A stretch of 64,000 nucleotides of DNA from a virus (IMGVR_UViG_3300047333_000104:3649-67648); one strand, 5' to 3'; shown: positions 9,991-39,298, counted from the first letter of the stretch. Made by a program: numbers and translations. Notes: generated from the letters alone by a model not told the origin.

Positions 9991-10019
9991 TTGACGCGAG
10001 CCGCGCAACGTAATACGTT
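9991..10019 (+). promoter_or_regulatory. Class II promoter TTGACG-17-TACGTT overlapped by palindrome AACGTA-A-TACGTT
   Basis: Identical architecture at 39270-39298. Confidence 0.75.
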
Positions 10020-10052: not shown

Positions 10053-10898
10053 ATGCGAGTCTATGCGAAGCTCGGTTCGTTAAATCACCATTACGCACCG
10101 GACGGTACTTATGCGCCAATCCCTAACCTCGACCTGTTTGCCGTTTGCTTGGCGGAATTGGCGGTGCTGTCGGAAGCGGACGGAGACCGCCATGCGGCGA
10201 GTCTGGGAACCGAATCGTTCGCGGAGATCGTTAAGCTGCTTGGTACCTACGCGCCCCCGTTTGCCTATTTCGGGTTCTCCACGTCGCACCCGACCGATCT
10301 TGGGTTCCATCTAAAATCCCGCCCCCACGTACTGGCGATTCAGGGAGGCGTGTCGGTCGTCGACGGCGAAGACTTCACGGGCGTTTCGGATTCCCTGGCT
10401 TTGGCGGACGAGGGGTACGGAGAGTGGAGTCTCTATTGGGTTGGAGACCAGGGCCGCGTCCGACTCTGGGATTTTCGTAGCCCTAGTGACGGGTCTCTAA
10501 TTCGCTGCGAAGGGATGCCGAGCGACGAGGACTTGATCCTCGACGCGGCGGCCGATGCGCAGCGAATGCTTGACGCCGCGCCGCTATGCTTCGGCTACGT
10601 TAATTACCGCGGCGAGTTCGCCAACCGCGTCGTCCAGCCGATATCGGTCGAATGGGGCGAGACTCTTTATCACCATGACGCTGGCTGGCATTTGAAGGCG
10701 CACGATCTCGAAAAGGGGGCGGAGCGGTCTTTCCTGATGCGCGATATCGTCACGCCTTTCTGGGACGTCCCGCGCGATCCTGGAGAGATGCGCCCCTACG
10801 CCACACCCGTGGGTTTGGGCGACCCCCTCAAGCGCGGCGACGTGCTGCGTTGCATCGACGACCACGGAACGCTGGCTGTAATTTGGAGCCCATCATGA
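10053..10898 (+). CDS. Fusion of 3807-like acidic domain and WYL-like domain
   Basis: F.YVNYRGE...R.V.P...WG....H...W.L.AHD.EK...RSF.M.DI. Confidence 0.75.
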   Translation: MRVYAKLGSLNHHYAPDGTYAPIPNLDLFAVCLAELAVLSEADGDRHAASLGTESFAEIVKLLGTYAPPFAYFGFSTSHPTDLGFHLKSRPHVLAIQGGVSVVDGEDFTGVSDSLALADEGYGEWSLYWVGDQGRVRLWDFRSPSDGSLIRCEGMPSDEDLILDAAADAQRMLDAAPLCFGYVNYRGEFANRVVQPISVEWGETLYHHDAGWHLKAHDLEKGAERSFLMRDIVTPFWDVPRDPGEMRPYATPVGLGDPLKRGDVLRCIDDHGTLAVIWSPS

Positions 10899-13231: not shown

Positions 13232-13737
13232 TCGTCGCCTTCACCGGCCATCGCCCCGACAAGCTTGGTGGCTACGGTCCCGTCGTCAGCGCCCGACTGG
13301 TCGAATTCGCCGCGGGCTTCATCTCGCGGTCGCCAGCGACCAGCTTCATCACGGGCATGGCGCTCGGATGGGACACGGCGGTCGCCGAGGCGTGCGTTCT
13401 GCTGCGTCGACCTTTCGTGGCGGCGATCCCGTTCAAAGGCCAGGAGTCGAAATGGCCGGCGGAGAGCCAACGCCGGTACGTTGAGTTGCTGTCGAAGGCC
13501 GCTGCGGTCGAGGTGATCTCGCCAGGCGCGTACTCGTCCGGTAAGATAATCCTTCGGGATCATTGGATGGTCGACCATTGCGATATTCTCGTGGCGCTAT
13601 GGGACGGATCGGCCAGTGGAACCCGCAAGACCGTAGAATACGCGAGAACACGGACGCCGCCAAAGCCGACAGTGAACCTGTGGTTGAACTGGCAGCAGGC
13701 GATGCATAAATTGGATTTGTTAGAGGGGGTGAAATGA
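13228..13737 (+). CDS. SLOG-superfamily (YspA/DUF1273-like) protein
   Basis: AFTGHRP.KLGGY, ITGMALG.DT..AE, A.PF.GQE.KW, R..WMVD..D.LVALWDG..SGT. Confidence 0.88.
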   Translation: MIVAFTGHRPDKLGGYGPVVSARLVEFAAGFISRSPATSFITGMALGWDTAVAEACVLLRRPFVAAIPFKGQESKWPAESQRRYVELLSKAAAVEVISPGAYSSGKIILRDHWMVDHCDILVALWDGSASGTRKTVEYARTRTPPKPTVNLWLNWQQAMHKLDLLEGVK

Positions 13738-13838
13738 GTCCCGTTGCGTTAGTCGCTTTTCTCGTTTTCCTAGCATTGATTTCCGTCGCGGCTGGTTTTT
13801 ACGACCTCCAAACGATTTGGGAGTTGGTGAACAAGTGA
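13734..13838 (+). CDS. 34-aa single-TM peptide
   Basis: ATGA overlap; hydrophobic N-terminus. Confidence 0.55.
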   Translation: MSPVALVAFLVFLALISVAAGFYDLQTIWELVNK

Positions 13839-14068
13839 TCGACCCGGACTTGGACGGCAATTTTGCGAAGAACATATGGCTCCGCGGCGTGGTCGAGAAC
13901 CAGAGCGCGAAGATCGCTTGGCTAAAGGTCAACCGGCTCTCGGTTCGCCTGCAGTGGTTCCTCGGCGGCATCTCCCTGGCCTACTTCGTTCTCACGGTAG
14001 CGCTGGCTCACGCGATCGGAGTATGGGTCTGGGGTTGGCCGATTTATCTAATCTTTAACGAAATGTGA
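13835..14068 (+). CDS. Small two-TM membrane protein
   Basis: GTGA overlap; two hydrophobic segments. Confidence 0.65.
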   Translation: MIDPDLDGNFAKNIWLRGVVENQSAKIAWLKVNRLSVRLQWFLGGISLAYFVLTVALAHAIGVWVWGWPIYLIFNEM

Positions 14069-14250
14069 ATCAAATGCCCCCGCTCCCCAATACGTCAATT
14101 CGCATTGACCCCGAGCAGCGCCCGACGCTCAATCAATTCCTTCGGATATGTCGGGAGCGGCCGGACGATCTACCCTTTGTGGATGCGGTGCTGGAAGCGT
14201 TGCTGCGGGGCGCGAAAGTCAACGCGTCGGTTGAGGAGCCCGAGGCGTGA
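14065..14250 (+). CDS. Hypothetical protein (61 aa)
   Basis: Coupled overlap. Confidence 0.55.
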   Translation: MNQMPPLPNTSIRIDPEQRPTLNQFLRICRERPDDLPFVDAVLEALLRGAKVNASVEEPEA

Positions 14251-14444
14251 CCCGCGTTGAACGTTTGCTTGCCGAGTACCCGGCGTTGTCCCGCGAAGAA
14301 GCTGAGATGGTCCTCGAGGCGGAGCGGATCGTCGCAAGCCAGGAGCTAGAACGTTTGGAGCACGACCTTATCCTTATCACTTTGGAAAACGCTTCTCGCT
14401 ATGACGCCCCCTTCATAGCGGCGTTGAAGGCGGTAGCCACGTGA
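14247..14444 (+). CDS. Hypothetical protein (65 aa)
   Basis: GTGA overlaps at both ends. Confidence 0.6.
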   Translation: MTRVERLLAEYPALSREEAEMVLEAERIVASQELERLEHDLILITLENASRYDAPFIAALKAVAT

Positions 14445-15316
14445 GCGGCCTCTTGCCGCCAGGCCCGGTCCGCGTTGAGGCGCCCTCGGAGCCGGCGCCG
14501 TTCGTCGTACCGGACTTCGCGGCGCGCGGGCGAGCGGTGCTGGAAGAGTACGTGCGGACGGGAGTGATCCCGTTTACGGCAGACGGCCTCGTCGTCTTCT
14601 ACAACCTGATGATGGCGGATCGCGGATTCAATTTCCCGCCGCACCTTTTCCCTGTGGCCATGGCGCTCATGGATGATCGTATTCCGAAGCTCATGATTAT
14701 CGTGGGACCAGGTAGTGGCAAGTCGAGTCTTCTATCGACGGTTTATCCCGCGTTCCGTCTCGGCCATGACCCGACTATGACGATCGTTGGCGTATCGGCC
14801 GGCGAGGCGCTTGTCCAAGGATTTATGGCCGCTGTGATGGAATGGGTGGAGAAGTCGAAGACATGGGCGCGGCTATTCCCCCATGTGCGACCCGATAAGG
14901 ATCTCGGCTGGTCGACTGAGGCGGGCATGTTTGTGACCGGCCGCGCTCCGGGCGACCCTGATTCCAGTTACGCCGCATTCGGGCTTACCTCGACGAAGCT
15001 TACGGGTGTTCACGCAAGACTCATTATCTGCGACGACATCCACAATGAAGAGAACTCGTCCTCGGCATCCGCTTGCGAAGGGGTGCGATCCAAGTATTAT
15101 CGGACGGTTCTTGGGCGTGCAGATCCCCGAGGTGCCCGGTTCATTATCGCCGGCCGGCGCTGGCATGAGGAGGATCTTTACGGCCACCTCGCCAAGAGCG
15201 AAGATTGGGTCGTTATGTCTTTGCCGGCGGAGCGCGTCGGTGAGAAGCAGTTATATTGGACGGTCGAGGTTCCCGACGGCCTCGTTTGTTGTTTCACTGA
15301 AGGACGAAAATCATGA
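14441..15316 (+). CDS. terL: Terminase large subunit, N-terminal ATPase half
   Basis: Walker A region LMIIVGPGSGKSS; Walker B LIICDD; coupling motif IIAGRRWHEEDLYG; WVVMSLPA. Confidence 0.9.
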   Translation: MSGLLPPGPVRVEAPSEPAPFVVPDFAARGRAVLEEYVRTGVIPFTADGLVVFYNLMMADRGFNFPPHLFPVAMALMDDRIPKLMIIVGPGSGKSSLLSTVYPAFRLGHDPTMTIVGVSAGEALVQGFMAAVMEWVEKSKTWARLFPHVRPDKDLGWSTEAGMFVTGRAPGDPDSSYAAFGLTSTKLTGVHARLIICDDIHNEENSSSASACEGVRSKYYRTVLGRADPRGARFIIAGRRWHEEDLYGHLAKSEDWVVMSLPAERVGEKQLYWTVEVPDGLVCCFTEGRKS

Positions 15317-17028
15317 CCTCTGTTAAGCTCGGACGCCTTCCCCGCCTCAAGGGTTTCAACGCTCCGAAGCTCGGCCCCGCCATCGCCGCCGCGGTATCCT
15401 TGCCGCCGACGCCGCCCGCTTCGGTCGATTGGTACTCGGCGGTAGGTAATGCTTTCGGCACTGACGGCAATCTTACGGTTGGGGATTGCACGATCGCTTG
15501 CCAAGCCCATTTGATCCAAGCGTGGACGACCAACGCAGGCAAACCATTCGCTCCGTCGCAAGCGGACTGCCTCGCCAAGTACGCGGCGCTCTCGGGATGG
15601 GACGGAACGCCGGGGGACGCGAGCGACGTCGGCCTCGTGGTTACTAAGGTGCTCGCCGACTGGCAGACGAACGGGCTCGACGGGCATAAACTGTCGGCGT
15701 GGGCCGAGATCGACGTCAAGAACCGCACCGAGCTTATGAATGCGATCTCGTGGTTTGGCGGCGTCTATATCGGCCTGAACTTGCCGATCAGCCTGCAGTC
15801 GGTGATTGAAGGCAATCTTCAGCCGGCTCCGCTCACCGTGACATGGGACGTCGTGCCGGGCGTTGATAGCGCGGCGCGGTCTTGGGGCGGACATGCGGTT
15901 CCGATCCTTGGATTTAACGCAACCGGACCGGTCGTCGTGTCGTGGGGCGCGGTGTACCAGATGACTTGGCCGTTCTACGAGGCGTATGTCGACGAAGCTT
16001 ATGCCCCCATTAGCGCCGACTTTATCGAAGCGACCGGTAGCACGCCGGGCGGTCTGACCTTAGCGCAACTTCAAGCCGATCTGGCCGCCGTTGGTGAGCC
16101 CACGACCGGTCCTTCGAGCCCGTTGGTGCTGTTCCTCGACGCCGGCAACGCGCCGGAGCTCTCAGTGGGCGCAATGCTGTCTCCGGACGTCATCCTCGCC
16201 GCGCCCGGCACTTTGGCGATCGGCCTGATCGAGATCTCCGCCGTCGCACAATCCTACGCGCTGCAAGTTACCGCGATCGAGAACTATCCCGGGTTCAGCC
16301 TCGGCAAATTATCCGGCTCGGTCGCCTGCGATCACTACGCCGGTTACACCTCGACCTTTACGGGCGGCGTGGCGCAAATCGAGTACTACACGTCGGCAGC
16401 CGGCAGCAATGTGAGCGGCGCAGGTGCGGCGTATGAGAACTTTACTGTATCGGGCAACATCGGTACCTGCGCTACCGTTTCGGACGGGGCGCAAGGCATC
16501 GTTTACGAAGAGTCGCCAGAGGGCAATGGGATTACCCTCGTGGGTGTGATGACCAGCAATGGTGCGGCTTACGTTTTCACGAGCAGCGACATCAATAACC
16601 TCGAATACGGGATTGAACTGTTGTCGGATTGCTCGCCCGCTATTCAACGCCTATACCTCGGATTGCTCGGCCGTCCCGGTAGTGCTGCGGAACTCCAATG
16701 GTACAACGACAACGGATGGAAGGCTGCTTACGCCGCGTTGGCGGGAAGCGGCGTCCCGAGCGCGGCAGCGGTGTTGCTGGCCAACCCTCAGTTCGTAAGT
16801 TATTTCACGCAATCTTCCGAGTTCGTAGCGTTGAACACCGGCTACGGCACGAATCCGACGCTGTTCGTCAATTATGTGTACGAGACCGCGCTCGGACGTA
16901 CGGCGGCTCCCGTCGAAGTGACGTACTGGGTGAACGCGATTGGATCGATGGGATACCCCGCGGTTATCGCCAGCATTACGCAATCGGCCGAAGCGATTCA
17001 GTTCTTGTCGGTTCGGAACGTCGGGTAA
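15313..17028 (+). CDS. Papain-like cysteine peptidase fused to C-terminal DUF4214 (S-layer-anchor-like) repeats
   Basis: VGDCT (Cys), GGHAV (His), VVSWG; C-terminal RLYLGLLGRP...W and FVNYVYETALGR...YWV. Confidence 0.7.
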   Translation: MTSVKLGRLPRLKGFNAPKLGPAIAAAVSLPPTPPASVDWYSAVGNAFGTDGNLTVGDCTIACQAHLIQAWTTNAGKPFAPSQADCLAKYAALSGWDGTPGDASDVGLVVTKVLADWQTNGLDGHKLSAWAEIDVKNRTELMNAISWFGGVYIGLNLPISLQSVIEGNLQPAPLTVTWDVVPGVDSAARSWGGHAVPILGFNATGPVVVSWGAVYQMTWPFYEAYVDEAYAPISADFIEATGSTPGGLTLAQLQADLAAVGEPTTGPSSPLVLFLDAGNAPELSVGAMLSPDVILAAPGTLAIGLIEISAVAQSYALQVTAIENYPGFSLGKLSGSVACDHYAGYTSTFTGGVAQIEYYTSAAGSNVSGAGAAYENFTVSGNIGTCATVSDGAQGIVYEESPEGNGITLVGVMTSNGAAYVFTSSDINNLEYGIELLSDCSPAIQRLYLGLLGRPGSAAELQWYNDNGWKAAYAALAGSGVPSAAAVLLANPQFVSYFTQSSEFVALNTGYGTNPTLFVNYVYETALGRTAAPVEVTYWVNAIGSMGYPAVIASITQSAEAIQFLSVRNVG

Positions 17029-17207
17029 TGATCGTCCGGCTTAAACATGTAGATCTCGTCGGCCTGTCGACGTTCGCGGTTCAGCAGATGTTGATTGAAC
17101 GCGGGCTCGATTGGCGGACAGCCAAAGCACATGCGGATCACACGAGCGGGGAGATCGTCTATGAAGGGGAGCCGATGGCGGGGTCTACGCCGCCGGCCGC
17201 CCCCTAA
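17028..17207 (+). CDS. Small hypothetical protein (59 aa)
   Basis: TAATG overlap. Confidence 0.55.
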   Translation: MIVRLKHVDLVGLSTFAVQQMLIERGLDWRTAKAHADHTSGEIVYEGEPMAGSTPPAAP

Positions 17208-17973
17208 AGGTCTGCCCGTGCAGGATGAAAGTGATCGTCTTGTCCTTTGCGGCAGGCGCCCAGCACAGCCCGCACGTTCCGCAGCAATCCGTCTTGTTCG
17301 TTTGTACAGGGCAAATGATGGACCCCGGAGGGGGCGCAGCCGGCGTAAAGTCAACCGTGGTGGCGCGCATAGGGCCGACCTGGCTCCCCGAGAAACGGAC
17401 AACCCAACGATCTGGGTATAGGTCGTTAATTGATGCGACGATCGTGCCGATTTCGGTGTCCGGTTGTCGTGCCGTATATCCGAATACCCGAAGGGCCGGG
17501 AATTGGTTCATCGCCTGCTTCCACAGAAGGGCGTAATCGGCGCTGTAAAAGTCACCGAGGATATGGAGCCGAACCGCGAAACCTTTAGGGTGCTTGGCGT
17601 TTTTCTCGGCTAGTTCTTTCAGCAGTCGGCGTTCTAAATCCTCGCCCGATCGGTGCCGCCGGCTATAGGGCATGCCGTTCCCATAACAGTTCGCCCAGTG
17701 CCCGCAAGAGGTCGGGCAAGTCGCGCGTTCCTCCAGCGTCAGAGTATAGAGGGGCATGCCCGCCCATGCGCCCTTCACTATCTTGTTGCCGAGTTTTCGT
17801 TGATTGATGCCGGACACAAGCAAACGCGGCGAGTCCTGAACGTCGGCCACCGTGGTGGGGAAGATCGTACGGGCTTCACGTAGCGCGGGGTGATCGGTAG
17901 ACAGGCCCCGGACTCTCTGCGGCGACAGTTCCGCATGCTCGGTGAACCGCCGCAGGGGTTTGGACATTCTCAT
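17185..17973 (-). CDS. GP88-like (radical-SAM-related) Fe-S protein
   Basis: TCP.SC...NCY; VRLHILGDF; F.YT; C-terminal CP.Q....CGTCGLCW. Confidence 0.7.
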   Translation of the reverse strand: MRMSKPLRRFTEHAELSPQRVRGLSTDHPALREARTIFPTTVADVQDSPRLLVSGINQRKLGNKIVKGAWAGMPLYTLTLEERATCPTSCGHWANCYGNGMPYSRRHRSGEDLERRLLKELAEKNAKHPKGFAVRLHILGDFYSADYALLWKQAMNQFPALRVFGYTARQPDTEIGTIVASINDLYPDRWVVRFSGSQVGPMRATTVDFTPAAPPPGSIICPVQTNKTDCCGTCGLCWAPAAKDKTITFILHGQTFRGRPAA

Positions 17974-18488
17974 AGCATTTCTCCTAGATCCTCACCACCT
18001 TCCGCGCCCCGATAGTGAACGCACAGTTCCGTCGATCCCGGCTCGAACGATTTGCACAGTTGTGGGCGGTCTTGATAGATCCCGCAGCGCCCGTTCGGCA
18101 GTAGCTTTGTGCAAACGAACTCCGCATAACCGTATTGACGCCCCGTTTCGTCAGATAAGAGCGGTTCTCTAAAGCTCGCCAGGACAGAGGGTGTCTCCCC
18201 GTCCGTCATCTGCGTGTAGGGCTCATCGCGAACATTCCACAGTGGGTCGTCGACCCAATGCGTCAGCCATTCGTCGTTCTTTATGAACTGGATTGTCTTA
18301 CAGCAAGCTCCGGGCGAGTAGCATTGGTCGCAGAGGCTCACAGGAAAGCCCATACTATGATCAAAACCCCGAGCATGAGTACGTAGGTGGTGCCGCGGAT
18401 TAATCCCAGCGCGCGGGTCTGCCGCGGGAGGCTTAGTGAGCGCCACCAAGTTTTCATCGCCGCGCCCGTTCCTCAGCGTTCTGCGCAT
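17970..18488 (-). CDS. YkgJ/CxxCxxCC-family cysteine-cluster protein
   Basis: CDQC..PGACC...C..L..NGRCGIY.DRP.LC..F; true start may be downstream. Confidence 0.8.
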   Translation of the reverse strand: MRRTLRNGRGDENLVALTKPPAADPRAGINPRHHLRTHARGFDHSMGFPVSLCDQCYSPGACCKTIQFIKNDEWLTHWVDDPLWNVRDEPYTQMTDGETPSVLASFREPLLSDETGRQYGYAEFVCTKLLPNGRCGIYQDRPQLCKSFEPGSTELCVHYRGAEGGEDLGEML

Positions 18489-18648
18489 AGAAGGCCAACT
18501 GCTCGAGGCACTCCTCGATCCGCGTCTGCCGATCCCAGAATTCGACGATAGTCTCGGAGATTAGCGCGACGACGCGTTGGTCCGCATCGGGTGCGTCCTT
18601 ATTGGCGAAGAGGTCCGCAAAGCGGGCGGCGAGTTCAGCCCCGGTCAT
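18454..18648 (-). CDS. Small hypothetical protein (64 aa)
   Basis: Overlap-coupled helical ORF. Confidence 0.55.
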   Translation of the reverse strand: MTGAELAARFADLFANKDAPDADQRVVALISETIVEFWDRQTRIEECLEQLAFYAQNAEERARR

Positions 18649-19501
18649 CGATCATCTCCTGAACAGCATCGGCCACGACATCGGGCCGGAACGCATAAAT
18701 GCAAGCGTCCGTACCATAGCGGCAGGACAGGTTCGTGGCGGGCGCCGGCAGCGTTTCCAGGCATCCCTGGCACGGCACGTCGGCCTCCATCTCCTTGACG
18801 CGCCAGCCGCGCTCACCGTGGCGGTACGGCACGCGGTATTTCGCCCGCACGGAGGTGAACAGACCGACGATCGGCGTATCGGTCGCCCCGGCGAGATGCA
18901 AGAGGGCGCTGTCGCTGCCGAGGAAGCAAAGACTGCTAGCGATCAGGTTCGCCGTCTCTCTAAGGCTCGTCTGGCCGACCGCCGAGCCCACGAACGGGCT
19001 TGTAACCCCGTCCGCTCGGAAGTCGGCCCCGCCGCCGACGAACAGCACGCGGTACTCCCGCGCGATCAGAAGCGACGACACTTCAACCCAGAAGTCAGCA
19101 GGCAGCGATCGGCTCGGCCAGGACCGGGCGGCGTGGATCGTAACGAGGCGGTCCTGCTCGCGGAGTTCGAACGGAGCAGGCGGATCAATGCCGAAAACGA
19201 CCCTCTTGTGCTTGTAGTCTCTGGGAGCCCCTGCATATTCGAGATAAGCGTCCACGACGTGCATCGTCGGTTTGCGCTCATACACGAGGTTGAGGTCGAT
19301 GACGCTTGTGAACCCGCCGCTCGCTCGGCCAGGCAGCAGAACCGTCGAGACGTGCGGGTTGTTGAGCAACACTTCGGGGCAGCCGGTCTCAAAGACGATC
19401 TCGGCCTCGGGGCCGTACCAGTCGCGGAGGTAGCGCAGGATCGGCGTAGCGCACAGAACATCACCCAAGGCACCGGTACGGCGGATTAGGATGCGAGTCA
19501 T
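18635..19501 (-). CDS. GT9 family glycosyltransferase (heptosyltransferase-like)
   Basis: R.GALGDVL.ATP.LR.L, L.NNPHV, SLRETA.LI.....FLG.DS..LHLAGA...P.VGLF, terminal Cys cluster. Confidence 0.9.
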   Translation of the reverse strand: MTRILIRRTGALGDVLCATPILRYLRDWYGPEAEIVFETGCPEVLLNNPHVSTVLLPGRASGGFTSVIDLNLVYERKPTMHVVDAYLEYAGAPRDYKHKRVVFGIDPPAPFELREQDRLVTIHAARSWPSRSLPADFWVEVSSLLIAREYRVLFVGGGADFRADGVTSPFVGSAVGQTSLRETANLIASSLCFLGSDSALLHLAGATDTPIVGLFTSVRAKYRVPYRHGERGWRVKEMEADVPCQGCLETLPAPATNLSCRYGTDACIYAFRPDVVADAVQEMIDDRG

Positions 19502-19746
19502 TTTGACTCCCTCACGATACGGTTGATATCGACCGCAACCGGTGGGTGGCCGGCGGCGACGACGGTCAGTTGGACCTTGGCGCCGAACAGCAGCGCGATC
19601 CGCTCGCGCCAAGTTGGCTTCCAGAACGAGATGAAGCTATCGCTGACGCGGAGCACCGGAAGGCCGAGGCATTTGCCCTGGGACTCGTCCCAACCCTCGG
19701 GTGCGCCGAGAACCGCTTGTTGGCCTTTGAAATGGATGGGGTTCAT
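19498..19746 (-). CDS. Small conserved phage protein (82 aa)
   Basis: LGAP.GWD....C..LPV....ISFW.PTWRER..L....V.L....HPPV. Confidence 0.75.
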   Translation of the reverse strand: MNPIHFKGQQAVLGAPEGWDESQGKCLGLPVLRVSDSFISFWKPTWRERIALLFGAKVQLTVVAAGHPPVAVDINRIVRESK

Positions 19747-19940
19747 TGACGACCCACCGAGTAAAGCCCGCATTTCGGGCAGTTGTCGGAGCCCCGCAAC
19801 GTTAGGCCGCCCAAGTGTCGGCCATTGACGGACCGAAGCCAGCCTTCGACCAGCACGGCGGCGGAAAGCACGTTATCGGGAATATTTATCGAACCGATCG
19901 GTTTTCCCGAATGGCCGTCGAATAATTGAAGCAAGGCCAT
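19743..19940 (-). CDS. Small hypothetical protein with C-terminal CxxC
   Basis: ATGA overlap; CPKCG. Confidence 0.55.
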   Translation of the reverse strand: MALLQLFDGHSGKPIGSINIPDNVLSAAVLVEGWLRSVNGRHLGGLTLRGSDNCPKCGLYSVGRQ

Positions 19941-19942
19941 TG

Positions 19943-20548
19943 TTAGAACCCCTTCGGCAGCGCCGAGATATACCCCTCGTGGGCATAGTCAATCGCGATC
20001 TCGTGCGTCTCTCCGAGCGCAGCATAAAGGAAGTCGAGATTGCGCTGCTCGGCACGCAGTGTTTGCGCCCAGTCGGGTAGGGTGCCGTAAGTGAACGGGC
20101 CGTCGACATAAATCCGCGCATCATCAATCAGGAAGATGTCGGGTACTCCGGGCCGTAACGAGCGGATCAATTCGATCTCTCGGGCGAGGGGCAGGCGGAG
20201 ATCGTCATCGGGCTCAACCGCGGCGTCGTTTGTCGTATAGCCGAGACCGGGGAAATGCGCGTCAAGCCAGAAGAGGACGGGATCGTCGCGCGATATGCCG
20301 CTGCCTAGGAGAACCTGCAGTCCTGCGAGGCTATCGGCCTGAAGGATAAGCACCTCTGGGCAGCGCGCGAACCGATCTCGGGCGGCGGCATGGATCTCTT
20401 CGATAAGCTCGATCGAGTAGATATTCGGGAAGCCGGCGGCGAGCGCCGCAGCCACACCTTCGCCCGCTCCGACTCCGGTTTCGACGAAGTGCTTGATACC
20501 GTGCGCGGCGCGCAACGCGGCGAGGTCGAAGTGATTGACGATTCCCAT
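19943..20548 (-). CDS. Class I SAM-dependent methyltransferase-like protein
   Basis: FVETG...GEG, IYSIE, ..DS, LFWLDAHF, IDDAR; TAATG overlap. Confidence 0.8.
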   Translation of the reverse strand: MGIVNHFDLAALRAAHGIKHFVETGVGAGEGVAAALAAGFPNIYSIELIEEIHAAARDRFARCPEVLILQADSLAGLQVLLGSGISRDDPVLFWLDAHFPGLGYTTNDAAVEPDDDLRLPLAREIELIRSLRPGVPDIFLIDDARIYVDGPFTYGTLPDWAQTLRAEQRNLDFLYAALGETHEIAIDYAHEGYISALPKGF

Positions 20549-21117
20549 TAAAGCCTCCGCAACACGAACTCGATCGACGACTCGACGTTCGGATTGAGCG
20601 TCTGGTCGCCCTGCAAACCTTCGACGAAGAAGTCGCGCACTACCACGATCCGTTCGACCGAAACACCGTCGATCTGGCGCAGCAAATCGAGCAGATTGAT
20701 CGACCGCGGCGACCAACTCTCCAGCTTGAACACCGTGAAGGTCCATTTGTGGTCTGCGTTGAACTGAGACGGCCAGAAGCCCTGCTCGTACATATCCTCG
20801 TCGGGGACGGTGATGACGAGATGGCCGCCCGGTCGGACGACGTTTATCCAGTTTTGGAGGGCGACGGCGGGGTCGGTCATGTGCTCAAGGCAATGGGCGG
20901 AATGGAGGAAATCATAAGGTGGGGCGCCTTCGAGGTATTGAGCATCCCCGTCTTCGACGTCCCAGCAGTCAACGTAGGTAATATGAGGGAAAGCCCCCAT
21001 GTGACGGCCGAGACCGTCTGATCCTGCGCCGACGTCGATCCCCGCGCCGACGAAATAGCGCGTCTGGAACGCGCCGTCATTGAAACGGCGCTTTGCCGCC
21101 TTCGATTGCTCATCCAA
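20548..21117 (-). CDS. Methyltransf_11-type SAM-dependent methyltransferase
   Basis: GIDVGAG.D, WD...GDAQ.L, YDF.HS.HCLEH, W..VVRPGG.L...VPD. Confidence 0.88.
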   Translation of the reverse strand: MDEQSKAAKRRFNDGAFQTRYFVGAGIDVGAGSDGLGRHMGAFPHITYVDCWDVEDGDAQYLEGAPPYDFLHSAHCLEHMTDPAVALQNWINVVRPGGHLVITVPDEDMYEQGFWPSQFNADHKWTFTVFKLESWSPRSINLLDLLRQIDGVSVERIVVVRDFFVEGLQGDQTLNPNVESSIEFVLRRL

Positions 21118-21144
21118 TTGATTGACTCCTCAAATCCCGCATAA

Positions 21145-21157
21145 AACGTAATACGTT
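21145..21157. promoter_or_regulatory. AACGTAATACGTT palindrome (third copy) in divergent intergenic region
   Basis: Exact 13-mer also at 10007-10019 and 39286-39298. Confidence 0.7.
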
Positions 21158-21202
21158 GTTTTAATGTCGAAAGCAACCACAATCTAGCCTATCTTCCTCG
21201 AC

Positions 21203-22285
21203 ATGCAAACGGTTCGCGTCGCATATGGGGAGGACCCAACGGGGCTCGGCTTCTACTGGCCGCAGAGCGCCCAGAAGCGTGCCGAAATGAACGCGATCAA
21301 GCGCGGCGATCCCTCGGCCTACGAGTCGGTCTATCAGTGTCGGCCCGGCAGCCGTGAAGGCCAGGTCTTTCTCGAATCGGACTTTGTCGAATATATCCCG
21401 CCGGTCGGCCTGGAGAACGGCGTGCTCGACGAGAGCATCCGCCGTTTCGTTTCCCGAGGAACGGTTGTTCAAGCGTGGGACACCGCGTCCTCAGTCGCGG
21501 CGCAGTCCGCCTACTCCGTGTGCGTAACCGCGCTTTTGATGCCGTGCAACAAGTATCATCGCGCCGAGGACCCCGCGGTCTACGGTCCCTGCGACGACCA
21601 TTACGACGTCCATCTGCTCGACCTCCATAGGGGGCGGTACGCGATCGGCGATCTCGTCGGCGCGTTCAAGATGCAGTACCACATCTGGCGGCCGGAACTG
21701 ATCCTCGTCGAGAAGAAGTCGTCTGGCATCACGCTTGTCCAGACGATGCCCGCGCTCGGGATGCCCGTTAAAGGGATCGAGCCGGAAGGCGGCAAGCGCG
21801 AGCGAGCGACTAGCAACGTCGGCGCCGGTTCCGCGCAGGGTTGGTTCCGTCAGCACCGGGTGCTTCATCCGAAAGACGCGGACTGGGTCGCACCGTGGAA
21901 GCGCGAACTCAAGGATTTCACGGGTAGCGACGAAGGCATCTCAGATCAGGTTGACGCCTCCGTGCATCTTATCCGCCACGCAATCATGTCCGGCGCGCAC
22001 ACCGCGCTTTTGCCAACGGATTGGAGCCCGGAGCGCGGTACGATGGCCGATTCGCAGATGGCGATGGGCGAAGGCGGGGTCTACGCGCCGTTCGCTGATC
22101 CGCGATTAGAATTACTGAACGCGCTTGACATGCTCGGGTCTATGTCGAACGATGCGTTTGAGGGGCTCTGCGGTCGTTGTATCAGCTATTCAGGTGATAC
22201 CTGCACGCTCCATCGCATGAAGAAGATCGCGTTGGACTCCTGCCTCATGTTCTCGGACGCAAACCCCGTAAGCTACTATGGGTGA
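21203..22285 (+). CDS. terL: Terminase large subunit, C-terminal RNase H-like nuclease half
   Basis: DP.G..FYWP, YESVYQCRP...G.VF, QAWDTAS, ILVEKKSSG.TL.Q, ELKDF.......DQVDA. Confidence 0.9.
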   Translation: MQTVRVAYGEDPTGLGFYWPQSAQKRAEMNAIKRGDPSAYESVYQCRPGSREGQVFLESDFVEYIPPVGLENGVLDESIRRFVSRGTVVQAWDTASSVAAQSAYSVCVTALLMPCNKYHRAEDPAVYGPCDDHYDVHLLDLHRGRYAIGDLVGAFKMQYHIWRPELILVEKKSSGITLVQTMPALGMPVKGIEPEGGKRERATSNVGAGSAQGWFRQHRVLHPKDADWVAPWKRELKDFTGSDEGISDQVDASVHLIRHAIMSGAHTALLPTDWSPERGTMADSQMAMGEGGVYAPFADPRLELLNALDMLGSMSNDAFEGLCGRCISYSGDTCTLHRMKKIALDSCLMFSDANPVSYYG

Positions 22286-23957
22286 CTTCGACATCAACGA
22301 AGGTGCGCCAGTCAAAGGGCGCGTCATGCTGCCATCTGCCGGGAGTGCCGCGATGGGCGCGGGCATGTCAGGCATGGTCAGCGACGTCGAGAGCTACGCT
22401 GCGATCTTCGAGACTCAGTACGCCAGAGCGATGGACGCGAGTGACGCAGCAGCGAAAAGTATTGCCGTCCCACCAGGTATGCTGTCGTTCGGCAAGATCA
22501 GCTACATGCCGGAGAGTTACAATTCCGGCGTGCTTCAGTGGCCGGGAATCGCCCCGGAGGCCCTCCGCAAGACCGTCCGCGAGAACCTCGCGCCGCAGCT
22601 CATCATCGGTATGCGTTGCGACGACGTCATTCGCTTCTCGCAGTATTCGACGCACCCCTGGAAGCCAGGCTGGCGCATCGAGCCGATGAATTCCGAAGCG
22701 GCCCCCAGCGTGTCCGACAAAAAGGACATTCAGGAGGTCATTCGGTTCCTGAGTAACTCCAGCATCGACACGACCTACGCGCAAGCTAACGAGCGGGACG
22801 AGCGAAAGCTGACGAATTTTCAGCGGTTCTTGTCGGCGATGACGCGGGATACGCTCACGTTCGACGGGATCGCGGTTTGGAAAGACGTCGACCAAAGCGG
22901 GAAGGTCAAAGCGTATAGCTTGTTGCCGGCCGGGAACATCCGGCTCGTCGGCCCGGACGGGTACCTCGGGAACAAAGACATCGCTTATGTCGCCGTGGAC
23001 GAAGGCAACAAGATCATCCATGAGTTCACACGAGAGGAACTGACGTTCTACATTCGCAACCCTCGGCCGGATGCAGAGTCGTTAGGCTACGGGTATCCGG
23101 AAATCGAAATAGCGATGCGTCTGGTGCAAGGAATACAGAACGCAATTGACCTAAATTGTGACACCTTTAACAAAAATTCCACACCCAACGGTATCCTCGT
23201 CCTCTCCGGTTCGTCCGTTACGCAGCGTCAACTTGATCTGCTCAACCGCATGTGGACGAACCTCAAGAAGGGCATCACGAAAGCGTGGGCTCTCCCGGTG
23301 ATGGGCCTCGCGGACGGCAGCAAGCTCGAAGTCGTCGATATGACCCGGCTCAAGGGCAACGAGGTCTACTACCGCGACTTTCTCAATATGTTCTTCGGCG
23401 CGTTTGCTACTGTTTACCGGTTCCCCGTCAAGCGGATCGGCTACAAGATCAGCGGCCAGGGCCGGGACAACGAGCCGAACCAAGACGCCGCGACCGAGAT
23501 GGACGATAGCGACGATCCGGGTCTTGCTCCGTTGCTCATCCACATCGAGAACGTTATCAACGAGTACCTCGTCTGGACGCGCTGGCCGCATCTGCGTTTC
23601 ACCTTCATCGGCAAGAACCCGAAAGAGGAGATGCGCGGCTTCGAGTTCCGTAAGAACGCCATGACTTTTGGGGAAGCCCGTTCGCTCGGCGATCTCGACG
23701 ACCTCGAGAACGAGGCGAAGGGCGAAGACGAGAAGCTGATCGCCCGCATCATGAACATGGCGCCGCTCGACCCGAATATGTCCGGCGTGTTCCAATCCGT
23801 GGCTGCCGCGTTTATCGCCGCCAAGTTTGGCGCGAAACCGGAGGGCGGCGACAAGGGCAACACGATGACCAGCAAGATCGATCCGGCTCGATCGGCCGAT
23901 CATGGAGCCGAAGCTGGAGTGCGGCGGGATTCAGCCGCGGAAACGAAGAAGGAATAG
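22278..23957 (+). CDS. Portal protein
   Basis: 559 aa; F..F...RD.LTFD, Y.RNPR.D....GYG.PE.E, F.....P.GIL, PLL..IE..IN; SPO1/Twort-type layout. Confidence 0.9.
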   Translation: MGDFDINEGAPVKGRVMLPSAGSAAMGAGMSGMVSDVESYAAIFETQYARAMDASDAAAKSIAVPPGMLSFGKISYMPESYNSGVLQWPGIAPEALRKTVRENLAPQLIIGMRCDDVIRFSQYSTHPWKPGWRIEPMNSEAAPSVSDKKDIQEVIRFLSNSSIDTTYAQANERDERKLTNFQRFLSAMTRDTLTFDGIAVWKDVDQSGKVKAYSLLPAGNIRLVGPDGYLGNKDIAYVAVDEGNKIIHEFTREELTFYIRNPRPDAESLGYGYPEIEIAMRLVQGIQNAIDLNCDTFNKNSTPNGILVLSGSSVTQRQLDLLNRMWTNLKKGITKAWALPVMGLADGSKLEVVDMTRLKGNEVYYRDFLNMFFGAFATVYRFPVKRIGYKISGQGRDNEPNQDAATEMDDSDDPGLAPLLIHIENVINEYLVWTRWPHLRFTFIGKNPKEEMRGFEFRKNAMTFGEARSLGDLDDLENEAKGEDEKLIARIMNMAPLDPNMSGVFQSVAAAFIAAKFGAKPEGGDKGNTMTSKIDPARSADHGAEAGVRRDSAAETKKE

Positions 23958-24195: not shown

Positions 24196-24438
24196 GTGAA
24201 ACACGCCCACGCGATCGAGAGAGCGTGGGAGAGGCACGGGTTGGAGTTGTCGGAGTCAGATTTCGAAAATGTCATTGCGTCGATCAAGAAAGGTCAGTCC
24301 ATCTTGCAGGGGACCGTTGATCACGGCCTAGAGCGCCGGATAGTCCAAGTCAAAGGGAAAGTCCTTTCGGTTGTTTTCGCACCCGCCGATGGCTACATCG
24401 TTACCGTCCTATCCAATTTCAAAATGCGGAGACCCTAG
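24196..24438 (+). CDS. Small protein, DUF4258/RelE-like pattern
   Basis: HA.ER..ER.G......I...I...; VVF......IVTVL. Confidence 0.55.
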   Translation: MKHAHAIERAWERHGLELSESDFENVIASIKKGQSILQGTVDHGLERRIVQVKGKVLSVVFAPADGYIVTVLSNFKMRRP

Positions 24439-24439
24439 A

Positions 24440-27400
24440 ATGTCGAAACTTCAGTTTACCCGTCCCCCTTACGTCCTAGCCCACGCTGGCGATCAGGCAG
24501 GATGCGGTTGGTACAGAATCCAGTCGCCCCTCGAAACCCTGATCAAGAAGGGTTTGATCGCCGGCCGCATCGAGTATTCGTTTCTCTCCGACGACATGCT
24601 CCGCGCGTTGAAACCCGATATCGTGGTGTGGCAGCGCCAGTGCGAGGACTACCAGGTCGACGCGATGCGCCGATATAAAGAGGTTCTTCCGGATCTCTAT
24701 ATGGTCTTCGAGATCGACGATGCGCTCTCCAAAGTGCCTGACGCATCATACCACAAGGCGTTCATGCCGCCGAACATCGACGCCAATCTCGCCAATGCGA
24801 TTTCGCTTTGCGACGTGGTCACCGTTACGACGGCGGACCTCGCGGCGCACATGAAAACGGTCAGTGGCGGCGATACGCCGATCCGTATCGTGCCGAACAT
24901 GCTGGCGCAGGAAGACGTCTACAAAGCTGACGCAGCCCGCGTGGCCGCCCGCAAGTTCCGTTCGAAGCTGCGCGTCGGCTGGGGCGGCGGCATCGGCCAT
25001 ACGGGGGATCTTGCCATCCTCAACCGGGCTATCGCGGAACTTGGCGACGAGGTGGAATGGGCATGGGCCGGCATGCAGCCCGAGATGCCGGAGGGTACGA
25101 TCTCGAAATTCTACGGGGCGGTCGCACCGAAGGAATATCTCAGCCTGCTCGCGTCGATGGATCTCGACCTCATGATCGCCCCGATCGAGGACAACGAATT
25201 TAATCGGTGCAAGTCGAACCTGCGACTGATCGAGGGCGGCGCCTGCGGCTACCCCGTGATCGCCAGCCCGGTCGCGCCCTACCTCAACGCTCCGGTGTTC
25301 GCCTATGCCGCCGGCCCCGAGGATTGGGCCGCTAAGATCCGCGAGTTCGCTGCTCTTTCCGCCGAGGAGCGGGGCACCTGGTCTTCCAAAATGCGGAACT
25401 GGGTCGACCGTAAATGGATTCTCGAAGAGAACGCCGAGGCTCGCGCCAAAGCGTGGCTTCCGCCGAAATCCGAACTCTTCTATCCGAGCCCGAACGTCGT
25501 CGGCAAGATCAGCGGCAGCACGATCATCGTGAGCCGCACGCTCGAAGAGGCGGCGCTTGCCCCCTATAAGGTCGTCAAGACCCTGAAGGACGCGCTGACC
25601 AGCAAGGGCCAGTCCGACATTCTTTACGTCCGGCCGAACGTTGTCATGACCGTCGATCAGATCGAAAGGCTGACGAAGCAAGAGAACTTCGATATCGCTA
25701 CGATATCTACGATGAGCAATGACGGCGGTCCGTGCTCCTTTCCGCAGATCGGCCAATTTACCATGCTCGATCCCGGCGCAGCGGACGCGCTCGATCAATA
25801 CTGCGCGCAGCGGCCCGGTACGGCGGCACTGACCGCTTGCGCCGGACCGGCGGTTTTGCTCAAGCGCACCGCGCTTAATGCGATCGGTTGGCCCGACGAG
25901 GACGAAGTTCTCGATCTTGCGCTGATCGAATGGTCGGCAGCGGCGGCCGGTCGAGGGTTCCGCAACATCGTCGATTTCAGCGTGTATGTCGGATGCCCCT
26001 CTCCGACGACTTTTTCGCAAGATATCGCGCACAACATGGCGATGCGGATTAGCATGCGCTGGCCGCAAGTTCAGACCGAGCATGAGAAAATCGCGGAAGC
26101 GCGCAACTTCCTCGAACTTCGTTTTCACCGCGAGTCCTACCGCTACTTGCCGCCGCAGAACCAAGGCGACTACGCGACCTGGAGTCAGGTCATGGACACG
26201 CTCGGCCCGCGCTCGCTCGCGGCCATGAACGAGTGGGACGCGGCCGACATCCGTCCCCTGGTCGTCGCGCATTCTTATGCCAAGGCGCTCACGCTTCCCG
26301 AGACCGGCGATTGGGTGCTGATGCACAAGATGGGCAGCGTCCTTCCCGAGCAGGCGATCCCGCTTTTCGCGGACTTCATCGCCAAGAACCCCGAAGCGAA
26401 AGTGGTCTACGCTGATCACGATTACCTTGATCAGAACGGCGAGCGCCAGGGCCACGATTTTAAGCCGAACTTCGACCTGCATCTGCTCATGGGCCGCGAC
26501 TACGTTACCCCCGTGTTTGCTGCCCGACGCGCCGATCTCGAACAGATCTCGACGCTCGGTAACGTTCCGGCGGAATGCCTACTTTACGAATTCGTTTTGA
26601 GCGCGGTCGCCCAGTTCGGTCGACAGAGCGTCGTTCATCTTCCCTCCATTCTCGCGCACCTTCCGGTGCCCAGAGTCGACGACCTGGCGGAAGCGGCGCG
26701 GATCAAATCGGAGATGGCCACCAAGTTCGCCGCACATATCGGCATGGACGCCCAGGTCAAGCCGCATGCGATCGGCCTCGGCTTGATGGATGTGAGCTTC
26801 GGTCGCGGCAAAACACTCGACATCCCGCACGTCTCGATCATCATTCCGACGAAGAATCGGATCGACATGATCGCCCCATGTCTTGCGACCGTCTTGTCTT
26901 TGACGACCTACCCGAGTTTCGAGGTATTGGTCATCGACAACGGCAGCGACAAGCAGGATGTGCTCGACTATTTCGCGGGGGTTGCGGACAAGCGCGTTCG
27001 GATCATCCAGCATGACGTGCCGTTCAACTGGTCTGAGATCAACAATTTCGCGGTCAAGCAGGCCAAGGGCAGCATCTTGTGCTTTCTCAACGACGATACC
27101 CGCGTTTCGTCCGGAGATTGGCTGACCGAGATGGTCGGCGCCGCGCTCTACGAGGACGTGGGCGCGGTCGGCGCTCGGCTGGTCTACCCGAACGGGACGC
27201 TCCAGCATATCGGCGTCGTCGCACGAGGCGGCATCTGCGGCCACATCCACAAGGGGCTTGCGGCCAATCTGATCGGGTACCACGGCATCGCTATCCTGCC
27301 GCACGAGAACGCCGCTCAGACCGGAGCATGCATGGTCGTTCGCCGCGAAATATACGACCGGATCGGCGGTTTCGACGAATCTTTTTCGAATAACTACAAC

Positions 27401-28249
27401 GACGTGGCGTTTTGCCTAGAAGCGCGCCGTCTCGGCCTGGTTAACGTTTATGCGCCGCGCGCCGAGTTGCAGCATTTCGAGGGCGTATCGCGAGTGTCGG
27501 GCATGACGTCCGAGGGGCAGAAGCTCCTGCATGAGGAGGGCGTCTTGCTCGGCGATAAGTATCCCGAGGACGATCCCTACTGGAACCGCAATCTCGTATT
27601 CGCCGGCCAGAAGGGCGGCATGTACGTCGTCGGCACCAATTACGATATGCTCAATTGGATGCCGCCCGTGTACCCATGGGCCGGCGAACGCGGCGAACCG
27701 CGCCGTGTTCTCCTGGTCGGTCCGACTGAAACGGCGCTCTCCGAACGTCAGGACGGTTGCGCGGTCTTCACACTCGGCATCCGCGGCAACGAAGTGCGGA
27801 TCGTCGATCCGCCGATGGAGAACAGCAAGACGTTCGATCTTCGTTACCCGCAGGAGATGGTCGAGTCTCTCGCCGCCCTCGGGATCGACGAGGTTATCCT
27901 GACTTCGGCAGCCGGCGTCCCGTTGATCGTCTTATCATTCTTGAGCCGCCTCGGGCTTCCCGTCACCTATCGGCCGATCGACGCCGAGATGGTATGCCCG
28001 CGCCTCGACCTGACCGCTTCCGGCTCGCCGTGCGACCGGGGATGGGCGACAGGCGGCTGCCAATCGTGCCTTGACGAACACGGGTCGGCGAATGGTTACG
28101 TGAACCGCATCTCGTGGATGAGCGAATGGGTTCGGTTCACCAGCAACCCCTCGGTAACGATCGATCTCTCGGAGGTCGAAGAGGAACGGTTTGCCGACGC
28201 GATCATGGAAGTGTTTCGGCCGGACGAATTAGTGCGGGCGGCCGAATGA
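24440..28249 (+). CDS. Multidomain glycosyltransferase (GT4-like + degenerate GT2 + GT2), 1269 aa
   Basis: N-terminal GCG.YRI..P, EIDD, VGW.GG..H.GDL, APIEDN.FN.CKSNLRL.E.GACG.PV; later VSIIIPTKN, VIDNGS, FNWS.INN, LCFLNDD, G.FDE....YNDV.FCL. Confidence 0.9.
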   Translation: MSKLQFTRPPYVLAHAGDQAGCGWYRIQSPLETLIKKGLIAGRIEYSFLSDDMLRALKPDIVVWQRQCEDYQVDAMRRYKEVLPDLYMVFEIDDALSKVPDASYHKAFMPPNIDANLANAISLCDVVTVTTADLAAHMKTVSGGDTPIRIVPNMLAQEDVYKADAARVAARKFRSKLRVGWGGGIGHTGDLAILNRAIAELGDEVEWAWAGMQPEMPEGTISKFYGAVAPKEYLSLLASMDLDLMIAPIEDNEFNRCKSNLRLIEGGACGYPVIASPVAPYLNAPVFAYAAGPEDWAAKIREFAALSAEERGTWSSKMRNWVDRKWILEENAEARAKAWLPPKSELFYPSPNVVGKISGSTIIVSRTLEEAALAPYKVVKTLKDALTSKGQSDILYVRPNVVMTVDQIERLTKQENFDIATISTMSNDGGPCSFPQIGQFTMLDPGAADALDQYCAQRPGTAALTACAGPAVLLKRTALNAIGWPDEDEVLDLALIEWSAAAAGRGFRNIVDFSVYVGCPSPTTFSQDIAHNMAMRISMRWPQVQTEHEKIAEARNFLELRFHRESYRYLPPQNQGDYATWSQVMDTLGPRSLAAMNEWDAADIRPLVVAHSYAKALTLPETGDWVLMHKMGSVLPEQAIPLFADFIAKNPEAKVVYADHDYLDQNGERQGHDFKPNFDLHLLMGRDYVTPVFAARRADLEQISTLGNVPAECLLYEFVLSAVAQFGRQSVVHLPSILAHLPVPRVDDLAEAARIKSEMATKFAAHIGMDAQVKPHAIGLGLMDVSFGRGKTLDIPHVSIIIPTKNRIDMIAPCLATVLSLTTYPSFEVLVIDNGSDKQDVLDYFAGVADKRVRIIQHDVPFNWSEINNFAVKQAKGSILCFLNDDTRVSSGDWLTEMVGAALYEDVGAVGARLVYPNGTLQHIGVVARGGICGHIHKGLAANLIGYHGIAILPHENAAQTGACMVVRREIYDRIGGFDESFSNNYNDVAFCLEARRLGLVNVYAPRAELQHFEGVSRVSGMTSEGQKLLHEEGVLLGDKYPEDDPYWNRNLVFAGQKGGMYVVGTNYDMLNWMPPVYPWAGERGEPRRVLLVGPTETALSERQDGCAVFTLGIRGNEVRIVDPPMENSKTFDLRYPQEMVESLAALGIDEVILTSAAGVPLIVLSFLSRLGLPVTYRPIDAEMVCPRLDLTASGSPCDRGWATGGCQSCLDEHGSANGYVNRISWMSEWVRFTSNPSVTIDLSEVEEERFADAIMEVFRPDELVRAAE

Positions 28250-39269: not shown

Positions 39270-39298
39270 TTGACGGCCGTCGTGGAACGTAATACGTT
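39270..39298 (+). promoter_or_regulatory. Class II promoter TTGACG-17-TACGTT with AACGTAATACGTT palindrome
   Basis: Same layout as 9991-10019. Confidence 0.75.

Follow-up and report, generated by a model that had tools for sequence, protein, structure and literature searches.

The gene for the large terminase subunit (TerL) of an uncultured phage is divided into two separate genes in the stretch of DNA analysed here, which comprises 64,000 nucleotides (nt; positions 3649-67648) of contig IMGVR_UViG_3300047333_000104 and is hereafter called the window. With a probability of about 0.8, we consider that the products of the two half-genes are translated as separate polypeptides and assemble non-covalently into one enzyme without splicing. 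In the proposed arrangement, the cut in terL would lie in the surface loop of a β-hairpin, towards the end of the ATPase domain. Of the two products, the N chain, 291 amino acids (aa) long, would supply the P-loop ATPase core; the C chain (360 aa) would supply the final strand and the helices of that domain, followed by the hinge, an RNase H-like nuclease and a tail with four cysteines (Cys4). Strand-to-strand complementation would rebuild the ATPase domain and set a C-chain segment against the Walker A loop; since the hinge is intact on the C chain, the nuclease would stay covalently tethered. A first-pass annotation of the window had proposed a two-chain packaging motor, and this view is strongly supported by the comparative and modelling evidence given below. 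The source contig (87,337 bp) is an IMG/VR virus with a CheckV completeness of 93%, and sequencing-run look-ups tie it to a moss metagenome.

The two half-genes, the parts of their products and the adjacent portal gene were located as follows.

14441..15316, + strand: TerL N chain, P-loop ATPase core; 291 aa, GTG start, phrog_38
14705..14725, + strand: Walker A motif GPGSGKS, residues 89-95 (invariant alignment columns)
15248..15271, + strand: last β-strand of the N chain, approximately residues 270-277, the predicted partner of the first C-chain strand
21203..22285, + strand: TerL C half; 360 aa, ATG start, phrog_38
21203..21352, + strand: C-chain residues 1-50, last strand and helices of the ATPase domain and predicted N-chain interface (structure alignments, complex model)
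21359..22000, + strand: C-chain residues 53-266, RNase H-like terminase nuclease (fold matches, invariant acidic residues)
22169..22243, + strand: Cys4 module C323, C326, C334 and C347 (residues 323-347; invariant cysteines)
22278..23957, + strand: portal gene (phrog_15361, E 2.5e-22; phrog_12, E 6.6e-21), overlapping the C-half end by 8 nt

The N-half protein ends with WVVMSLPAERVGEKQLYWTVEVPDGLVCCFTEGRKS, followed by the stop codon at 15314-15316, and the C-half protein begins with MQTVRVAYGEDPTGLGFYWP. In the comparison with PHROG profiles, the N half matched positions 276-479 of the 760 positions of phrog_38 (terminase large subunit; E 2.8e-40) and the C half matched positions 487-713 of the same profile (E 5.7e-17). 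Because adjoining parts of phrog_38 were matched, the two halves are taken as consecutive pieces of one TerL, a relation that, judged by these profile matches, is far beyond chance. Further PHROG matches were phrog_4758 for the N half and phrog_5573 for the C half, with 243 and 250 positions, respectively. Both are named "terminase large subunit", and half-length TerL entries are therefore already present in reference phage collections. A Pfam scan gave no match for either half. As in other TerLs, the N-terminal part is a P-loop ATPase with Walker A and Walker B motifs, the C-terminal part is an RNase H-like nuclease with conserved acidic residues, and the C half stands beside the portal gene, whose start it overlaps, at the head of the morphogenesis module. 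The two domains do not share one polypeptide: translation stops at 15314-15316 and starts afresh at 21203, and the 5,886 nt between the halves (15317-21202) hold about nine genes. The split into two open reading frames (ORFs) 5.9 kilobases (kb) apart had been noticed in the first-pass annotation, and both ORFs proved to be as described there and to match phrog_38; the genes reported on both strands between them correspond to one + strand gene and about eight minus-strand genes.

Stand-alone halves were common among relatives. A search with the C half, blind to proteins longer than 630 aa, returned 103 homologues, of which approximately 95 were stand-alone proteins of 330-410 aa with 37-74% identity and four were about 613-627 aa long. 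When close C-half homologues were collected, 112 of 150 stood alone, a count biased by the length filter. Among 50%-identity cluster representatives, searched with no length limit, the 54 clusters at E<1e-30 were divided into 22 stand-alone, 28 fused and 4 ambiguous ones, the fused relatives being about 610-680 aa long. More than 100 stand-alone C halves were present in metagenomes. For the N half, too, stand-alone homologues numbered more than 100; they were about 250-300 aa long, and almost every one was annotated "hypothetical". By contrast with an alignment-based scan of viral contigs, which found relatives, a single-protein scan found nothing. In 50,697 phage records, tblastn gave no match for the C half and only ordinary TerLs with at most 31% identity for the N half, and in GTDB genomes the best match was 31% identical, with no prophage relative and no host clue.

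We fetched 24 distinct related loci (numbers beginning with L) and placed both halves on them by tblastn. Together with the window, these gave 25 contexts, 7 fused and 18 split (17 loci and the window), and the split ones formed a graded series. In the tightest arrangements, the two ORFs overlapped by 44 nt (L016) or by 1 or 4 nt at the stop and start codons (L008, L012, L019 and L021), and 18 nt lay between the matched N and C stretches in L022. Inserts of one gene were found in L010, L011 and L025, gaps of 2.4-3.7 kb in L002, L006, L009, L013 and L018, a gap of 4.8 kb in L007 and one of 9.3 kb in L003. On this comparison of sequences, the split arrangement is recurrent and old within the clade and is no singular oddity of the window genome.

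The same loci bear on the possibility that a 5.9-kb block was wrongly joined into terL, which has to be considered for a short-read metagenome assembly. A second assembler's 40.7-kb contig in Logan, probably built from the same source reads, was identical over 13500-23500 with 0 differences and no joints. Furthermore, the order of N half, cassette, C half and portal gene was found on independent contigs from other samples or projects (L002, L003, L006, L007, L009, L013 and L018). Misassembly is therefore excluded, and we leave it a negligible probability. Short pieces with 95-99% identity, scattered over window positions 13865-22104, were also found in a freshwater metagenome run (X3); they hint at a close relative outside the moss habitat, and are too sparse for a habitat to be named.

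The catalytic residues of both halves were conserved. Walker A (G89-P-G..K94-S95), Walker B (D198-D199) and R239-R240 were invariant in 28 N-half sequences, and D93, E170, D248 and D251 were invariant in 25 split C halves. The ratio of nonsynonymous to synonymous substitution rates (dN/dS) against L002, the closest relative, was 0.14 for the N half and 0.14 for the C half, and against L009 it was 0.14 and 0.18, values that are rough because dS is saturated (1.7-2.5). These data indicate that both halves are under purifying selection. In one genome, a disrupted essential gene would by default be read as decay, in this case of the terminase of a defective or satellite-like element that uses the packaging enzyme of another phage. 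Such a reading is refuted by the conservation seen among the homologous sequences, and we consider it very improbable: the split is seen in more than 100 clusters, with identities as low as 37%, the catalytic residues are invariant, dN/dS is about 0.14 in both halves, and the 87-kb genome is 93% complete and carries portal and head genes.

The four C-terminal cysteines were also invariant in the 25 split forms, and their equivalents were invariant in 18 fused forms. The Cys4 tail is zinc-ribbon-like (C..C, then C, then C), was modelled with low confidence and has no aligned counterpart in solved TerLs.

A single active chain could still arise if the halves were joined by a group I or group II intron, by trans-splicing or by ligation through a split intein. 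Inteins do occur in the clade, in frame at Walker A. No element of this kind was found at the split. Rfam cmscan with 4,227 families and permissive filters gave no match at E<=1, and thus no intron RNA structure, on either strand of 14000-22600. Most of the insert, with about eight opposite-strand genes, codes antisense to the halves. Pfam gave no intein or Hint domain in either half. The window proteins extend only 4 residues beyond the CCFTE motif (N half) and 7 residues ahead of the YG.DP motif (C half), as compared with 88-105 aa for N-intein and 33-54 aa for C-intein parts of known split inteins (PMC2677866). Neither such parts nor the free-standing homing endonuclease of split-intein "fractured genes" was found. 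In the relatives with stop/start overlaps of 1-4 nt, there is no room for an intron or an intein. Joining after transcription or translation is thus largely refuted, and we give it a very small probability; the absence of a visible intron or intein, as first annotated, was borne out by the empty Rfam and Pfam scans, the short tails and the overlapping codons in relatives.

The in-frame inserts of the relatives lie exactly at Walker A of the N halves, between the residues equivalent to window residues 94 and 95. The one in L012 (4036-5055) is 340 aa long with LAGLIDADG and Hom_end matches, and those in L010 (6176-6637) and L015 (8023-8484) are 154 aa each. These inserts are of the intein type and lie apart from the split point. 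LAGLIDADG domains also occur in "fused" homologues as long as 886-993 aa (e.g., P0109).

DNA excision that would restore terL was considered and rejected, as the insert has no recombinase and no flanking repeats. A search for direct and inverted repeats (att-like or excision sites) flanking the insert gave short chance matches only, none at both junctions.

We then located the break on the protein. In all split forms, the N chain ends 2-35 residues past the conserved motif P.GL.CCF[TN][DE], and the C chain starts 4-28 residues ahead of a second one, [KR].YG.DP...GFYWP; the fused forms have a linker of 16-36 residues between the two motifs, which is charged and variable. A structural model of the fused homologue P0077 (627 aa; mean predicted local distance difference test score (pLDDT) 82.5) showed the two motifs as long neighbouring β-strands, E233-241 and E268-277, with the linker as an excursion between them and the split-equivalent point at residues 252-271. 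The model resembled the TerL of PhiV-1 (PDB 8DGC; Z 24.0, 454 residues aligned) and the nuclease domains of G20c and RB49 (Z 15.6-15.7). ATPase-only crystal structures aligned with it up to about residue 316-323: the P74-26 ATPase domain (3-254) with model residues 10-317 (Z 19.1, root-mean-square deviation (rmsd) 2.7 Å, 217 residues aligned) and T4 gp17 (101-357) with residues 1-316 (Z 17.7). Nuclease-only structures started at residue 318-322.

The model of the window C half (pLDDT 78) gave the same picture. The nuclease domains of RB49/T4 gp17, G20c, P74-26, Sf6, SPP1 and HK97 began at its residue 50-53 (Z 12.5-16.2), with the closest values for the RB49 gp17 nuclease (VIA Z 16.2, rmsd 3.3 Å, 171 residues aligned), the G20c TerL nuclease (Z 16.0) and the T4 and P74-26 nucleases (Z 15-16), and the Foldseek probability for the nuclease fold was 1.00. 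A fold search was needed for these assignments, as a PDB sequence search (HMMER, C-half profile) gave no TerL match. According to the models, the break precedes the ATPase/nuclease boundary by about 50 residues and falls in a β-hairpin loop that the crystal structures include in the ATPase domain. The C gene would therefore encode the ATPase tail, the hinge and the nuclease, plus the Cys4 tail. Of the initial description as separate ATPase and nuclease genes, the division into two parts stands, and the cut at the domain boundary does not, since the structure alignments place it about 50 residues upstream.

The complex of the two chains was modelled with alignments for both. The ipSAE score was 0.82 (0.83, 0.82 and 0.80 in the individual runs), as against 0.00 for the best control, a mark that was reached by 58 of 80 solved complexes and by 2 of 110 mismatched pairs. 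The multimer modelling suggested with the first-pass annotation predicts a complex. The runs shared at least 61% of contacts, with a partner pLDDT of at least 70. In the predicted interface, which is specific, N-chain residues 259-279 meet C-chain residues 1-22, with further contributions from C-chain residues 25, 28-29, 40 and 42-49. The pairing of strands N271-277 and C3-9 had expected errors of 0.9-1.3 Å, and C-chain residues 40-49, around the conserved YQCRP, touched the Walker A loop (N87-92) and the RRW segment (N239-243) in the model. The score indicates that the chains can rebuild the known TerL fold; binding in the cell does not follow from it.

The gene order suggested that the two halves belong to different transcription units. 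A long rightward run of genes has the N half as its last but one member, and the C half opens a long rightward late run with the portal gene, a giant glycosyltransferase gene and head genes. In the proposed layout, the N half would end the upstream rightward operon, and the C half would head the late operon behind its own regulatory region. The candidate signals were located as follows.

21118..21202, no strand: divergent intergenic region between cassette and C half; 85 nt, with the 13-mer AACGTAATACGTT and TCGAAA-17-TATCTT
10007-10019 of the window: 13-mer copy 1, before a + strand gene, about 33 nt ahead of the start at 10053
21145-21157 of the window: 13-mer copy 2, before a + strand gene, 45 nt ahead of the C half
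39286-39298 of the window: 13-mer copy 3, upstream of the start of a + strand gene

The near-palindromic 13-mer occurs in exactly three copies in the 87-kb genome, each 5' of a + strand gene start, and the chance expectation is 0.78 matches even when two mismatches are allowed. In L002, a one-letter variant lies 43 nt 5' of the C half and is the only copy in 18 kb. From its positions, the 13-mer is a candidate for a phage-specific promoter or operator signalling where transcription units begin. At two of the three sites, GTTGACG is found upstream, and a Shine-Dalgarno (SD) sequence of the GGAGTCAA type follows.

The TCGAAA-17 nt-TATCTT pair had originally been put forward as the promoter of a leaderless C-half transcript. 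It lies at 21167-21195, is a single copy in the window and, as had been described, ends 7 nt before the C-half ATG. Neither the promoter role nor the leaderless start is supported: the pair matches the consensus at 8 of 12 positions, below the threshold of the promoter scan, and is not conserved in relatives. A sigma-70 scan found promoter-like sites no commoner than in shuffled sequences (2 versus 2.3), and the regions upstream of the C halves of 15 relatives had no common promoter or SD pattern. The 13-mer is the more convincing signal. The C half was confirmed to lack an SD-like run, and several relatives have such runs where the window has none. With the N half near the end of one rightward run and the C half heading the next, separate transcription of the halves is the natural reading; it is plausible from the gene geometry and the repeated 13-mer, and the -35/-10 pair first proposed for it is not upheld. 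A terminator-like hairpin at 15265-15294, a 7-bp stem followed by TTTGTTGTTT, lies inside the N-half coding sequence, within 50 nt of its end; as it overlaps the conserved PDGLVCCF motif, it may be a coincidence.

Several points weigh against assembly of the two chains into one enzyme. The support for it is comparative and modelled, the phage being known from its sequence alone; among the sequencing runs listed for the window sequence, none was an RNA run and only DNA contigs matched. The binding of the chains and the composite ATPase domain come from structure prediction. Complex predictions tend to pass for halves of proteins that were solved as a single chain, and as solved TerLs are single chains, the ipSAE value partly reflects likeness to a known fold. 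In addition, inspection of the sequence upstream of the C half revealed no recognisable SD, the candidate promoter is weak, and the dN/dS values carry the roughness mentioned above.

Alternatively, the two chains might form no stable complex, with the ATPase chain alone as the translocating ring and the nuclease chain recruited transiently for the initiation and termination cuts, which would resemble phages with a separate HNH nuclease. The placing of the halves in different transcription units is compatible with this, and the ATPase and nuclease activities of TerL are separable in vitro. However, the break lies inside the ATPase fold: solved structures have the equivalent of C-chain residues 1-50 as part of the ATPase domain, the model brings these residues into contact with Walker A, and an N chain without them would expose a β-sheet edge. 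The contacts between the chains were also confidently predicted, with errors of about 1 Å. We therefore regard transient recruitment as unlikely and prefer the assembled two-chain enzyme.

The genes between the halves were as follows.

15313..17028, + strand: cargo gene 1, 571 aa, with DUF4214 at the C-terminus (phrog_19005)
17185..21117, minus strand: cargo cassette of five larger genes and three small ORFs (Pfam/PHROG)
17185-17973, minus strand: GP88-like protein (GP88/DUF7227; Pfam)
17970-18488, minus strand: CxxCxxCC protein (Pfam)
18635-19612, minus strand: GT9 glycosyltransferase (Pfam)
19943-20746, minus strand: 267-aa ORF (no Pfam match)
20548-21117, minus strand: S-adenosylmethionine (SAM) methyltransferase (Pfam)

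The ATG of cargo gene 1 overlaps the N-half stop codon as ATGA. The 267-aa ORF as listed overlaps the methyltransferase ORF by about 200 nt, and its start is therefore probably further downstream; L002 holds a TylF/Methyltransf_24 gene at the equivalent position. The RNA fold of the convergent gap at 17020-17190 was unremarkable (z -0.73).

Genes for GT9 and methyltransferases recurred at the same slot in L002, L003, L007, L009, L011 and L013, and the remaining cargo varied among loci. GT9 was accompanied by methyltransferases in L002, L009 and L013, and by UDP-galactopyranose mutase, a methyltransferase and an epimerase in L007. The slot of L003 (2719-9953) held ThyX, transketolase halves, an epimerase, a DegT aminotransferase, GT9 and a methyltransferase, and that of L018 (6562-10001) held the large and small subunits of ribonucleotide reductase and a Dam methylase. 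Single genes were found in L010 (7424-8083; a Mom-family DNA-modification gene), L011 (a reversed GT9) and L025 (a 204-aa ORF with no Pfam match). The only ORF scanned in the insert of L006, 286 aa long, had no Pfam match. No endonuclease was found among the Pfam/PHROG matches of the window insert (DUF4214, GP88/DUF7227, CxxCxxCC, GT9 and methyltransferase), and none in the examined inserts of L002, L003, L007, L009, L010, L011, L013 and L018. After the split, the gap probably became a permissive slot for accessory genes, which in the window took up the gene of the DUF4214 protein and a cassette coding antisense for GT9, methyltransferases and Fe/Cys proteins.

To examine the history of the split, we built a tree of the C-domain region with 74 rows by maximum likelihood. 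On it, the label split or fused needs 7 changes, at least 3 of the changes being forced by well-supported branches, and the approximately unbiased (AU) test rejected a tree with all stand-alone forms as one clade (log-likelihood difference 207, p 4.3e-28). Therefore, fission, or re-fusion, was repeated at the same loop. The window fell within a group of 16 rows, all split, with a Shimodaira-Hasegawa-like approximate likelihood ratio test (SH-aLRT) support of 97, in which the distance between the halves ranges from a 1-nt stop/start overlap (L012) to 9.3 kb (L003). The most economical reading of these sequences is that the gene was split first and that the gap then became a cargo slot.

In a bolder version of the two-chain model, which we offer tentatively, TerL would be an obligate heterodimer whose ATPase site is composite, the N chain having no activity until the missing strand and the lid helices are brought in by the late-expressed C chain. 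Division between two transcription units would then work as a switch for the timing or the safety of packaging and DNA cutting. In addition, the break, which arose three times or more at one and the same hairpin loop, would be a recombination slot through which phages exchange virion-glycosylation and DNA-modification cargo.

Canonical single-chain TerLs (PhiV-1, of the T7 type, P74-26, G20c, T4/RB49 gp17, D6E and HK97) have the same two folds in the same order and are likewise encoded next to the portal gene. In contrast, the present TerL consists of two genes and polypeptides 5.9 kb apart, its break lies inside the ATPase domain and it has an extra C-terminal Cys4 module; HMMER detected no sequence similarity to the solved TerLs. 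Split-intein "fractured genes" with a free-standing endonuclease, including a gp17-like terminase, were described by Dassa et al. (2009; PMC2677866). They too have an essential phage gene in two ORFs with foreign gene(s) between them, but they carry intein halves and a homing endonuclease and yield a re-ligated protein; none of these was found here, and the insert consists of several genes on both strands. In Jug phages (PMC12880540) and Staphylococcus phage Twort (PMC13729910), group I introns split terL into two or three coding fragments, and splicing was proven by metatranscriptome reads for the Jug phages (PMC12880540). Such genes are co-transcribed and RNA-spliced, whereas the window gave no intron model match and its intervening genes are antisense. 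In-frame terL inteins are also known, e.g., in Mic1 (PMC7156551).

The closest functional parallel is offered by NrdA of Aeromonas phage Aeh1 (Friedrich et al. 2007; Crona et al. 2011, PMC3045599). This essential enzyme is split by the homing endonuclease gene mobE and made as two chains, which reassemble with no splicing step. It differs in being another enzyme and in having one homing endonuclease gene inserted; the slot described here has variable cargo, the fission is old and repeated, and no endonuclease gene that could have created the split was found in the inserts examined. For the present TerL, the binding of the two products to each other is a prediction of the complex model (ipSAE 0.82 versus 0.00 for the best control). 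In N4-like phages, the RNAP1 and RNAP2 genes are separated by zero to eight spacer genes (PMC5418858). This is also a two-chain enzyme with variable, unrelated spacers, but it is a different enzyme, and its fused ancestral form is not found in the same clade, whereas the terL clade has fused forms. For a cultured phage, one published sentence mentions terL as possibly lying in two genes with about five between them, and does not state that the halves are complementary. Full-text literature searches turned up no account of a two-gene TerL free of introns and inteins, and the paper on thaumarchaeal integrated mobile genetic elements (iMGEs) reports none. We consider it new that the break falls inside the ATPase domain, that a continuum links fused with cassette-split forms and that the split originated repeatedly.

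All tailed phages share TerL as a hallmark gene, and it drives one of the strongest molecular motors known; models of force generation hinge on the relative motion of the ATPase domain, the lid and the nuclease. A widespread two-chain TerL would be a natural dissection of this enzyme, cut at a hairpin loop with the hinge intact, and the model predicts an ATPase activity that needs both chains. Pipelines for virus detection or phylogeny that expect one TerL of 450-700 aa will miss or mishandle the clade, because the halves have no Pfam match and are mostly annotated "hypothetical". The slot between the halves is also a hotspot for the swapping of glycosylation, Mom, ribonucleotide reductase and ThyX genes.

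A giant GT2 glycosyltransferase gene, encoding 1,230-1,300 aa, was found 3' of the portal gene, either directly or after one to three short ORFs, at 24371-28249 in the window, 10577-14311 in L002 and 13565-17257 in L004. It is kept in both split and fused relatives, and the virion-glycosylation theme is therefore independent of the terL split.

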